A stretch of DNA of 63,863 bases, the filler included, from Octopus bimaculoides (Eukaryota), in NCBI RefSeq assembly GCF_001194135.2. It is 5 parts of 5 records of this genome, joined end to end, with 100 filler letters (N's around TTAATTAATTAA, not from the genome) between each part and the next. Parts side by side here need not be neighbours in the genome. Positions count along the whole stretch, not along the records: positions 1 to 25,084 come from NC_069008.1; positions 25,185 to 55,190 come from NC_069007.1; positions 55,291 to 59,299 come from NC_069001.1; positions 59,400 to 62,515 come from NC_068985.1; 1 more part is not named here. The stretch is one strand, 5' to 3'. The translations under genes were made by a program, and so were the position numbers. Every line of letters begins with the position of its first letter. Position 1 is the stretch's first letter. Below the pieces are notes generated by a model that was given only the letters and a program-made list of their open reading frames with translations, was not told where the DNA came from and did no database searches. Of the stretch, positions 3,601-60,156 are shown one piece after another.

Positions 3601-3940
3601 ATATATATATATATATATATATATATATAATGTATTTATTGTTGTTGTTACTGTTGCTGATGCTACGGCCCTTATTGTTGTTTGTTACATGCACATACAT
3701 ACACACACACATACATACATACATACATACATACGTACATACACACACACATCCATATAGCGAGGAGGTAGGAATGGGTAAATGGTTCAAAGAGAAGTAG
3801 TTAGGTTGGTAGGCTGGTAGGTTGGTAGGTAGCTACGTGGAGAAAGATAAATACATACATACAGAGAGAGAGAGAGAGAGAGATGGATGGATGGATTGCT
3901 ATATACATACATACATACATACATACATATATATATAAAG

Positions 3941-3980
3941 ACTGTTACTCTGAGTTTCACGTTCCCGTTCATCGGACAGT
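3941..3980 (-). ncRNA. Minimal type I hammerhead-like motif, U4C core
   Basis: ACUGU-CCGAUGA-ACG(GGAA)CGU-GAAAC-UCAGA-GUA-ACAGU; stems I, II and III all Watson-Crick by hand folding. Confidence 0.7.
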
Positions 3981-3989
3981 TTTAGCAAA

Positions 3990-4029
3990 ACTGTCCGATG
4001 AACGGGAATGTGAAACTCAGAGTAATAGT
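3990..4029 (+). ncRNA. Minimal type I hammerhead-like motif, U4C core (second arm)
   Basis: ACUGU-CCGAUGA-ACG(GGAA)UGU-GAAAC-UCAGA-GUA-AUAGU; both differences from the other arm give G-U wobble pairs. Confidence 0.65.
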
Positions 4030-4303
4030 CTTTTGTTATATTTCTGCTGCTTTTAAATAAAGTATATTACTCTACCTCTGGTATTTGAGTACTCTTTTTT
4101 CCACCTTGTTGCACATTTCATGTGCTTACTCCGGTATATATATATATATATATNNNNNNNNNNNNNNNNNNNNNNNNNNNNNNNNNNNNNNNNNNNNNNN
4201 NNNNNNNNNNNNNNNNNNNNNNNNNNNNNNNNNNNNNNNNNNNNNNNNNNNNNNNNNNNNNNNNNNNNNNNNNNNNNNNNNNNNNNNNNNNNNNNNNNNN
4301 NNN

Positions 4304-4670
4304 ATATATATAGATAGATAGATAGATAGATAGATAGATAGATAGATAGATAGAGAGATAGATAGACAGACAGACAGACAGACAGACAGACAGACAGGTA
4401 GGTAGATAGATAGATAGATAGATAGATAGATGGATCGATGGATAGATAGATAGATAGATAGGTAGATATATATATATATATATAGATAGATAGATAGATA
4501 GATAGATAGATAAACAGACAGACAGGCATGTAGATAGACAGATAGATAGACGCAGGGCTACGTGGAGATATAGCAAGATAGAGCGATTGCTAGATATACA
4601 GATGGATAAACGGATGTGTGTGTGTGTGTGTGTGTGTGTGTGTGTGTGTGTGTGTGTGTGTGTGTGTGTA
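4304..4670. repeat. (GATA)n/(GACA)n/(GT)n compound microsatellite
   Basis: Direct inspection. Confidence 0.95.
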
Positions 4671-5292
4671 TAGATAAGTAGATAGTTGAAGAGATACATA
4701 GATAAACAGATTGATAGACATAGAAGTAGATAAAGCTCTTTAAATGTGTATATGTGTGTCTGTGGCTATGCTGGGACACCATTTTCTATGAGTATATAAT
4801 CGATTGCATCAACCCTGGTAATATTTGCTTTATCGATTTCTGTGTAAGATTTGAACCCGCAAAGTGAAGGGAGATAACTCATAAAGTTTTGTCCAGACGT
4901 TTTCATCATTTAGGTGCCTACCTGTTTATGCACGCTCAGAGAAATATATCTGCACATAAAAATGCGTGCGTATGAATGTGTATGTATACGTATATACATA
5001 TAATAATAATAATAATAATAATTATATATATATATATATATATATATATATATATATATATATATATATATATATATATATATATATATATGAACCATTA
5101 TATGTATATAATATATGCATATATATACATATATAGTGAGTGTATGAGTATATATATATATATATGTGTGTGTGTGTATGTTTCTTTATATGTATATTTA
5201 TATATAGAGAGTATATATATATAGTATTTAGTATATATAGTATGTATGTATACACACACACACACACACACATATATATAGATAGATAGATA

Positions 5293-5415
5293 GATGCTGG
5301 TGTGTTTAGATTAAGTACTAGGCTTACAAAGAATAGGTCCTGGGGTCGATTCGCTCGACTAAAGACGGTGCTCCAGCATGGCCGCAGTCAAATAACTTGA
5401 AACAAGTAAAAGAAT
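5293..5415 (+). mobile_element. SINE A, 3' fragment
   Basis: taagtactaggcttacaaagaata...ggtgctccagcatggccgcagtca...aaacaagtaaaaga. Confidence 0.8.
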
Positions 5416-57190: not shown

Positions 57191-58486
57191 GTTGAGGTAG
57201 TTCTTGTTATTGTTGTTGATTTATACCTTGTCAGGTGGGATCGATCAGGCCGCTTATCAAACGGATTTCAACCGCGACCATTACGACTTTTTTCAGTCTT
57301 AGTGTATCTGGGAGGACATCCAAAATCTTCCATTTTTGAAGACATAACGTAATTTTATTGCTGTGTGTGTACTTCGCATCTGAATTAACGTACAACTCCA
57401 TTTCACTGAATGCAAAGAAAATTAACATAAAACGTTACAAGTTAAATCTCAAAGGATATTACAGACCCTAAAAAAAAACTGCATCGGTATATCTTATATC
57501 CTGGTGTTGGGTAAATAATTTAATGAAACAAGGGAAAGAAAGTATTCACACGACGCACTACTATTACTGTTACACGAGGCTAAATGTTCTCTGCCAACGG
57601 CTCACAGTGAACTGCTCACTCTGGCCTGCTGACAGTTCTTTATTTTATGGTAATGTGTCAGTTCCTTTTAGTCACATGTGAGTCCTCGGAATCCTTCCAC
57701 AATATCTCCCCTTTTGAGAATTAAACTCCGCTCAGAGTTTTATTATCTCTTACGCTTAGGGTTCTATTCCAGTGTTTCCGTTCTTTTCCGTTTACGGGTG
57801 CTAGAACATGTAGTTTCAAATTGTTTGAATGTTGGTACTTCAAACGTGTGGATTTCATTTTTCGTAACTGCTTTTTTTTTCCGTAAATCTTTTTTTTTTA
57901 AGCTGATCAATATGTCTTTTACATTCGACATCTTTTCATTTTATCAGGAATAACATTCTTCCAATTTGTTTAATGACACTGGTCAACAAAATGAAACTTT
58001 TTTTAATCATCAGAGTTGCTGATTGACTTTTCTGGGTTAATTGTTGATGCTGATTACGAATCTGAAGTCCGATTTCCTCTATCAGGTTACATTTTCATGT
58101 TAATAATACCTGCTGTTTTAATTTTTTGAATACGTAAAGCATGTCTATATAACGTATATTGAATACAAGATACGATAATTTCATGGCTTTTTATTGTACA
58201 AAATAAAATTATTGCGTACAAATAAGTTAGAATACACTCAAATGCATAACAACTTAAAATCTAGCTGTCACAAAGGCATTATCAATGGTGGTTTAAATTA
58301 ATGTCTTTAAAAAAAGGGTTGTATTAAGAGATTCAATGAAGTCGCTCGGAGGTGGGGACCGAACGGCTTCATTCCATATTTTCAGTATATTCAATTCATC
58401 TTTTCCATTCATTTTGCTTTTTTTGTCCCCACCATGTGCTGTCCCCTCTATGTACGGCATTCATGGCCAATTTCTTGAAATAAAGA

Positions 58487-58832
58487 AGCTTGCTTACCAA
58501 CCACCTGGTTCCGGGTTCAGTCCTACTGCGTGATATATTGGGTAAATGTCTTTTATTATTGCCTCTGGGTTTGGTAGACGGAAACTGAAAAAAGCCCGTC
58601 ATATATGTGTGAGTGTGTGTGTGTGTGCGTATTTGTGTATCTGTGTTTGTCCCCCCACCATCGCTTGACAACTGACGCTGGTGTGTTCACGCCCCTGTAA
58701 CTAGCGGTTCGGCAAAATCGCCGATAGAATAAGTACTAGGCTTACAAAGAATAAGTCCTAAGGTTGATTTGTTCGACTAAAGGCAGTGCTCCAGCATGGC
58801 CGCAGCTAAATAACTGAAACAAGTAAAAGAAT
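58487..58832 (+). mobile_element. SINE A, 5'-truncated copy
   Basis: Colinear with the reverse complement of 20721-21100. Confidence 0.85.
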
Positions 58833-58859
58833 AAGGAGAGCAGTTTTGGGGAAGGGAGT

Positions 58860-59065
58860 AAGTCGATTACACACACACACACACATACTCATACATACAT
58901 ACATACATACATCGGCTCCTATACTCAACTGATACTTATTTTATCGATATTTTAGGAGAAAAAGTAAAGTCGACCTCTACGAATTTGAACTTAGAACGTA
59001 ATGACAGACGAAATCCCGCCAAGCATTTTGCCCGGCGTGCTAATGATTCTGCCCGCTCGCCGCCT
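58860..59065 (-). mobile_element. SINE B with internal (CA)/(CATA) expansion
   Basis: Head RC ggcggcgagcgggcagaatcattagcacgccggg. Confidence 0.8.
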
Positions 59066-59189
59066 TGCATCAGAGAATAATATCAAACTAGCGGGACTCG
59101 TTCGAAATGACTCGTTCAAGGAAAGGTATACACAACATCTTGCGTCATTCAGAGACAAAAGCAGAAAACATGCGACACCCCTATCAAAT

Positions 59190-59299
59190 ATTTTTTTATA
59201 TACTTATTATTTTTTTGTAAAAAACATTATTTTCATTTTCCCCCTTCTTGAAAATTTGCCATGCAATGAAAGCCGGTTAGAAACCCTTTTTAATCCTTC
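59190..59299 (+). mobile_element. Second copy of the U3-A8 motif family (59244-59283)
   Basis: Identical 40-nt core block with diverged flanks; runs into an assembly gap. Confidence 0.45.
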
Positions 59300-60121
59300 N
59301 NNNNNNNNNNNNNNNNNNNNNNNNNNNNNNNNNNNNNNNNNNNTTAATTAATTAANNNNNNNNNNNNNNNNNNNNNNNNNNNNNNNNNNNNNNNNNNNNC
59401 ACACACACACACACACACACACACACACACACACGCACGCACGCACACACACACACAGATATGTAGAATCAACATAAAAAGTACTCGATCCAGAAAGAGT
59501 TACTAATAGTAATAGTTTCACGCTTTTATGATGCTTTAACTAGGCATATTTATAGAATACGCTATGTATCTTCAAGCAATCTTTCAGGCTCTGTTTATGC
59601 GTTATACATATTTTAAAAACAAGGACGCTGGACAATGAAAGAATAAGAAAAGACGCGTAAAAAAACGTGAAGAAGGTTAATGCACAAAATGGAACGAGAA
59701 GAAAGGAATGAAATCAAGAAGACTAAATTTCCCGACCACTTTGCAGAAACTTTAATGTATACAGGTGGCACCGAGCAAAATAACAGAAAATATGTCAAAG
59801 TCTGCGAAACAGTAACTCAATCAGGAGCGAGTGGTGTTCCCCAATTCGAAAAAAAATAGATCATTCCGTGTGTTTACAACTGCTAAAAATTTCAGATCTG
59901 GAATTAAGCAGAGTTTTGGAATTGTTGGATCTAAGAAGATGAGATATTTCTGCTACGCATAAGTTGCGTTTCATAAATCCATTAATACATACATACATGC
60001 ATACATACATACATACATACATACATACATACATACATACATACATACATACATATCATCATACACAACATGGACAAAAAATTCTTCTTAAGAAAATACA
60101 TATTCAAATAAGTAAACCATA

Positions 60122-60156
60122 ATATCATGAATAGCGAAAGCGAAACCGGTCGATAT
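60122..60156 (+). ncRNA. Minimal hammerhead-like motif with A3-U8 core
   Basis: AUAUC-AUGAAUA-GC(GAAA)GC-GAAAC-CG-GUC-GAUAU; perfect 5-bp stem I, GNRA-capped stem II, palindromic ACCGGU stem III. Confidence 0.55.

Follow-up and report, generated by a model that had tools for sequence, protein, structure and literature searches.

Eleven minimal type I hammerhead motifs lie in the stretch of Octopus bimaculoides DNA analysed here (63,863 nt in five joined parts, filler included; assembly GCF_001194135.2; hereafter the window), a microsatellite-rich animal sequence in which scaffold gaps contribute 6,857 N. The motifs sit in short stubs of six repeat families. We consider it probable that these stubs are the 3' ends (pseudo-long terminal repeats, pseudo-LTRs) of Penelope-like elements (PLEs) or of non-coding elements that likely borrow PLE enzymes, and that the unusual cores of the motifs are family traits predicted to allow slow self-cleavage as dimers.

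Inspection of the sequence confirmed the sites and core letters that an initial annotation had assigned to all eleven motifs (Table 1). A relaxed type I hammerhead descriptor, composed post hoc once the motifs were known, matched five sites without mismatch (0.0 expected in 100 local dinucleotide shuffles) and seven with at most one mismatch (shuffle mean 0.23, maximum 2). None of the 100 shuffles reached the observed count, which lies far above chance. The descriptor found no further sites elsewhere in the window, and it misses four of the eleven motifs, namely 21888, 45360, 49109 and its identical copy 59244. Rfam returned no match in the window at the gathering threshold and no hammerhead among the best 150 of 326 E-value matches, nearly all of them to microRNA families and mostly on microsatellites or hairpins; there were no Rfam rows for 40500-40900. 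A motif pattern scan of viral contigs gave 0 matches, and two RNA-motif pattern matches in metagenomes were rejected as chance, being GC-rich contigs without stem I.

Self-comparison and flank alignment uphold the six repeat families that had been proposed: 3941/3990 (family 1), 23335 (family 2), 21888/24112/45360 (family 3), 40570/40771 (family 4), 49109/59244 (family 5) and 60122 (family 6). The downstream flanks of the family 3 group are related (z 6.3 and 18.3). Multi-copy status follows from aligned contigs for families 2, 3 and 6, which the contig comparison covers, and from two window copies each for families 1, 4 and 5. Because two inverted pairs each stem from a single insertion, the eleven motifs represent nine insertions.

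The type I topology, which combines stems I and II with a stem III that is either minimal or palindromic, is exact in five of the eleven motifs and damaged yet recognisable in six; the earlier statement that pairing is kept is thus exact for the former five. At 49109/59244 there is a U.U at the stem II base plus a G.U in stem III. All eleven motifs have G5, A9, G12-A13-A14-A15.1, U16.1 and H17, and thus the GAAA and the NUH triad, with position 17 never G. Positions 3 and 8 form a Watson-Crick pair in every motif (C-G in eight, U-A in two, A-U in one). Two cores are canonical, two are U3-A8 and seven deviate (U4C in four, A6U in two, A3-U8 in one). The CUGANGA core is missing from nine of the eleven, which bears out the prediction that searches for it would miss several cores, several of them family-level; counts based on it underestimate hammerheads in such genomes. 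In the active hammerhead conformation, C3 and G8 are paired (PMC3884650), and covarying bases at these positions are active in vitro (PMC3088659). That the pair persists with three different identities speaks for selection of the active conformation, and its Watson-Crick state in all eleven motifs makes slow cleavage as dimers a better reading than a role in structure alone. Stem III is fully or almost palindromic. Together with its flanks it is predicted to form an intermolecular duplex in all five types tested, with energies of -1.7 to -11.1 kcal/mol, and predicted two-copy folds of 23335 and 60122 gave the dimer arrangement.

Table 1. Hammerhead ribozyme (HHR) motifs, including minimal ones (min-HHRs), and associated features in the window.
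Positions	Strand	Feature	Family	Core	Remarks
3941..3980	-	min-HHR	1	CCGAUGA (U4C)	inverted partner of 3990; (TA)n begins 3 nt past motif
3990..4029	+	min-HHR	1	CCGAUGA (U4C)	(TA)n 105 nt downstream
21888..21924	+	min-HHR	3 (branch)	CCGACGA (U4C)	stem I damaged, 3/5 pairs
23335..23385	-	HHR	2	CCGAUGA (U4C)	stem III is the palindrome CAGCUG; downstream microsatellite after 58-59 nt
23416..23449	+	inverted partial copy of 23335 motif			from loop II on (3' half only); absent from the initial annotation
24112..24148	+	min-HHR	3	CUGUUGA (A6U)	every stem intact; (TA)n 90 nt downstream
40570..40615	-	min-HHR	4	CUGAUGA (canonical)	damaged stem II; inverted partner of 40771
40634..40688	+	tRNA-like head 5' of 40771 motif	4		exact A-box 40634-40644, degenerate B-box-like stretch 44 nt on; putatively RNA polymerase III, SINE (short interspersed element) type
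40771..40816	+	min-HHR	4	CUGAUGA (canonical)	damaged stem III (C.A)
45360..45397	-	min-HHR	3	CUGUUGA (A6U)	stem I closing pair broken; (CA)n 85 nt downstream
49109..49148	-	HHR-like motif	5	UUGAAAA (U3-A8)	U.U at stem II base; (TA)n 106 nt downstream
59067..59195	+	43-aa open stretch 5' of 59244 motif			presumed GIY-YIG likeness, unconfirmed
59244..59283	+	HHR-like motif	5	UUGAAAA (U3-A8)	40/40 identical to 49109; flanks differ
60122..60156	+	min-HHR, 33-35 nt	6	AUGAAUA (A3-U8)	every stem intact

The insertions have PLE-like footprints. Endonuclease-bearing PLE insertions are described by Craig et al. (2021, bioRxiv 10.1101/2021.04.23.441226) as heavily 5' truncated, with an inverted truncated copy beside the pseudo-LTR and a bias toward microsatellites. 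The surviving insertions in the window are stubs of 100-260 nt, and self-comparison with flank alignment found inverted copies in three of the nine: 3929-4041 (113 nt, 88%), 23272-23512 (80%, the partner beginning in loop II) and 40515-40636 / 40750-40871 (89%). A family 6 stretch occurs in both orientations within one 357-nt contig. A (TA)n or (CA)n tract starts no more than 106 nt downstream of six of the eleven motifs (three meet an assembly gap and two have none), against a background of 12.5% of 13,057 random positions; family 6 loose ends also terminate in (TA)n.

In the mechanism that we propose, two same-sense hammerheads in the tandem pseudo-LTRs of a source element would pair by way of stem III, a palindrome, with cleavage following H17. 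Starting at a fixed position ~60-110 nt downstream of the motif, a PLE reverse transcriptase/GIY-YIG endonuclease would copy the RNA into (TA)n/(CA)n DNA, and copying would usually halt early and often fold back, leaving single or head-to-head stubs. Since a little cleavage would suffice for spread, the weakening effect of U4C and A6U would be tolerated, as would the exchanged pairs U3-A8 and A3-U8. The stubs in the window would be mostly inert because they are single, antisense-paired or damaged. The initial annotation had considered trans or dimer partners, a role that is unlikely for the head-to-head pairs, because each would place one sense and one antisense copy in one transcript, as a long hairpin.

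Several observations weigh against this account. Minimum-energy folds predicted for monomers are often not hammerheads, and the window holds no same-sense tandem hammerhead pair. The footprints are PLE-like, as the annotation's proposal of PLE mobilisation would have it, but a Pfam scan of 222 of the 479 stop-free stretches (40+ aa) in the window detected no PLE reverse transcriptase or GIY-YIG domain in an open reading frame (ORF). The piece at 59067-59195, which putatively resembles a segment of a GIY-YIG endonuclease, was negative in every search: it was unmatched in word searches, a search of 1.84 billion proteins, a protein atlas, PDB, PHROGs and viral contigs, and gave only E 3 or worse in tblastn against phages. 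As it is short, these negatives are weak evidence of absence. The covariation suggested as a check amounted to one compensatory pair in the three family 3 window copies, not above shuffles (170/500). In the U4C and A6U families a substantial minority of copies may also be canonical, given that 40 of the 124 difference rows for families 2 and 3 are listed. Finally, the change A6C cost a different hammerhead orders of magnitude of its activity in Mg2+ (PMC7151607), and the min-HHRs of PLEs cleave poorly even where the core is intact (Cervera and de la Pena 2014, PMC4209133), so that A6U may be dead.

These last points lead to the strongest competing explanation, a tentative one in our estimate, in which the fold of the variant families no longer cuts and is instead a structure recognised by a PLE or host protein, or cleaves only with protein help. 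A6U marks the most abundant of the families compared (summed depth 2.5-3.1 million, a rough measure), and the weakening change differs between the sister branches of family 3 (U4C in one, A6U in the other). Canonical hammerheads are missing from Naiad PLEs, which spread nonetheless, and Craig et al. call the function of HHRs in endonuclease-bearing PLEs unclear; Cervera and de la Pena (PMC4209133) allow roles beyond self-cleavage; the loss of activity with A6C would fit as well. On the other hand, a structural signal would have no clear need for a 3-8 pair kept in three identities or for an H17 that is never G, and a natural U4C variant of a viroid, although lowered in activity, still functions in vivo and permits infectivity. 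RNA reads on family 3 come about equally from both strands, with no pile-up of starts or ends, and family 6 has 10 reads only; as ordinary RNA-seq is blind to cleavage, these reads count neither way. In run X21, 268 reads join family 3 loop II at 24131 to a different upstream sequence, which suggests one expressed copy with an internal core deletion.

It is conceivable, with a similarly modest likelihood, that the PLE hammerheads of this lineage have escaped the canonical core (an A6U family of tens of thousands of copies, and A3-U8 across three species). Should they prove incapable of unaided cleavage, the fold would be a protein-read or protein-activated retrotransposition signal, and the six families a natural mutational series able to settle the purpose of PLE hammerheads. 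Craig et al. and Cervera and de la Pena (2014) leave unanswered why most PLEs keep a hammerhead of so little activity. Families amplified with A3-U8, U3-A8, U4C or A6U make that purpose testable, each through a one- or two-letter revertant, and a natural A3-U8 pair would bring the Watson-Crick identities known for the 3-8 tertiary pair to three.

A further explanation, which we judge improbable, is that the unusual cores arose by random decay in individual old copies whose sources had canonical CUGANGA cores. Public sequencing runs contain the window for organism A and parts of it for organisms B and C. Family 6 contigs aligned at 80% likeness number 561, 387 and 215 from organisms A, B and C, more diverged copies falling outside. 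Across all 14 difference rows, no variant reaches 8% at 60127 (A3) or 60132 (U8) in any of the three species; A3-U8 is therefore the family 6 state among the aligned contigs, and decay is refuted for this family. The family 6 tallies contain zero A>C or T>G changes. At 60124, 24-29% read G, with C on the partner side in loose ends; the reads are unphased, and this is likely a compensatory stem I change. For family 3, the A6U core CUGUUGA is common to 24112 and 45360, copies that are 76% alike, and U at position 6 recurs in loose-end strings from two sequencing runs. Summed depth over its motif is 2.5-3.1 million (2.5 million in run X1) compared with ~35-125 for single contigs, which corresponds roughly to tens of thousands of copies, depth being a rough abundance and no copy count. 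Each difference row listed for families 2 and 3 reaches ~60% or higher in one run or another; none of the 40 lies inside the cores of 24112 or 23335, so that no large majority of copies has lost A6U or U4C. In four runs, position 17 of the A6U family is U instead of C in 22-89%, which stays within NUH. The UUGAAAA core of family 5 is identical in two separate insertions with different flanks. U4C creates a CpG, and it is found in three independent insertions in a window where CpG observed/expected is 0.45; such persistence in CpG-poor DNA would argue against decay. Decay draws some support from the damaged stems of six of the eleven copies, from the 84 of 124 difference rows that are unlisted and from the reach of the contig comparison, which does not extend to family 1, family 5 or the 21888 branch. 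Overall, the odd cores appear to be mostly family traits.

A shade less credible still is an origin as monomers of tandem non-LTR retrozymes that spread as small circular RNAs. The repeats here appear non-coding, and two reports (PMC7229834; bioRxiv 10.64898/2026.07.22.740005) describe type I hammerheads in retrozymes with a proposed origin from PLE ends. However, no 170-400-nt tandem unit covers any motif in self-comparison or among the Tandem Repeats Finder matches listed (150 of 181), and retrozyme hammerheads are of the canonical kind as far as PMC7229834 describes them, whereas these are minimal. No RNA back-joint is listed for families 2, 3 or 6 in one ordinary RNA-seq run each, ~6% read, a weak point against. 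Chance matches within AT-rich repetitive DNA, for which a post hoc descriptor failed by four of the eleven sites would speak, are virtually discounted, being refuted by the shuffles and by the membership of the motifs in multi-copy repeat families.

The window holds several other features. A further abundant repeat at 23520-23645 (summed depth ~4.5e5, run X1) adjoins the 23335 hairpin, with an apparent damaged hammerhead 3' half in the vicinity of 23580-23600 (+). At 42940-42975 (-), GAAACGUC follows a CUGAUCU-like stretch and is possibly another decayed hammerhead. At 26185-26260 (-), GAAA, the palindrome UGGCCA and UU occur with CUGAUUA downstream rather than upstream, possibly a permuted hammerhead layout. 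At 43887-44012 lies a long hairpin, almost perfect and with (TA)n in its loop, which is the top Rfam E-value row, below the gathering score, and probably an inverted-repeat element. A C2H2 zinc-finger coding stretch at 28486-28689 (+) (Pfam zf-C2H2, E 9e-10) is likely a host-gene exon, and some motifs may therefore be intronic. The stretches 25716-26039 (+) and 32027-33604 (-) are fragments that putatively resemble non-LTR retrotransposon reverse transcriptase and restriction-like endonuclease, and are not PLE-like. Weak Pfam matches were seen to zf-RVT at 32458-32661 (E 0.005), to the DDE_3 transposase at 35573-35836 (-) (E 9e-4) and to the Pif1 2B domain at 62912-63169 (+) (E 2e-4), the last possibly a Helitron remnant.

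Family 4 differs in having a tRNA-like head. The exact tRNA-type A-box occurs three times in the window against 0.59 expected, and the B-box-like stretch is degenerate and was judged by eye; ARAGORN and Rfam were both negative for tRNA identity of 40634-40688. From its sequence, the head together with 40771 suggests a tRNA-headed SINE inserted in PLE style, with an inverted copy. Schistosome SINE-like retroposons combine an RNA polymerase III promoter with a hammerhead, as far as the review in PMC6765202 recounts them, and family 4 resembles them in that an A-box and a B-box-like stretch precede the hammerhead. Unlike those retroposons, its motif is minimal, its insertion has an inverted copy, and a tRNA origin is unsupported by ARAGORN or Rfam.

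The closest known relatives are the min-HHRs in the pseudo-LTRs of metazoan PLEs (Cervera and de la Pena 2014, PMC4209133). As in that study, the window motifs are type I with a short stem I, a minimal or palindromic stem III and, in most, an extra base after A9, and they form several families per genome whose copies are mostly single or on opposite strands; schistosome opposite-strand pairs lie 100-700 bp apart. The exact UUGAAAA core is printed there for S. mansoni (4), of the Cercyon clade, with ~1,300 U3-A8 hits, and an Acropora Neptune PLE motif in the same study resembles family 3. Thus, many min-HHR families per genome, opposite-strand pairs and the U3-A8 core UUGAAAA are already known. 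In contrast, U4C, A6U and A3-U8 occur in none of the 56 representative motifs of Fig. S3 in that paper, whose descriptor fixed the catalytic boxes, and beside the window motifs no PLE ORF is confirmed among the stretches scanned.

With endonuclease-bearing PLEs (Craig et al. 2021) the insertions share 5' truncation, an inverted copy and microsatellite bias, whereas only 100-260-nt stubs survive in the window and their clade and 30-40-bp tail are not fixed. They also resemble metazoan non-LTR retrozymes (PMC7229834; bioRxiv 10.64898/2026.07.22.740005) as non-coding repeats with type I hammerheads, and retrozymes are proposed to depend on PLEs. Retrozyme units, however, are 170-400 nt long and arranged in tandem, their hammerheads are canonical and their RNAs circular; no such feature was seen at the window motifs.

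Weakened cores also have precedents. U3-A8 covariation, viroid U4C and phage A6C are natural and of reduced activity (Perreault et al. 2011, PMC3088659; Naghdi et al. 2020, PMC7151607). In the excerpts used from these papers such variants are rare single ribozymes, and A3-U8 and A6U are unnamed, whereas here the variants mark multi-copy retroelement families. Our literature search found A3-U8 and A6U unreported as natural hammerhead cores, a provisional result that surveys of PLE variants may revise. The 2016 survey by Lunse et al. reportedly covers many PLE hammerhead variants and may already list A3-U8 or A6U. Overall, the elements themselves belong to a known class, and the A3-U8 and A6U cores, in two abundant families, appear to be new.

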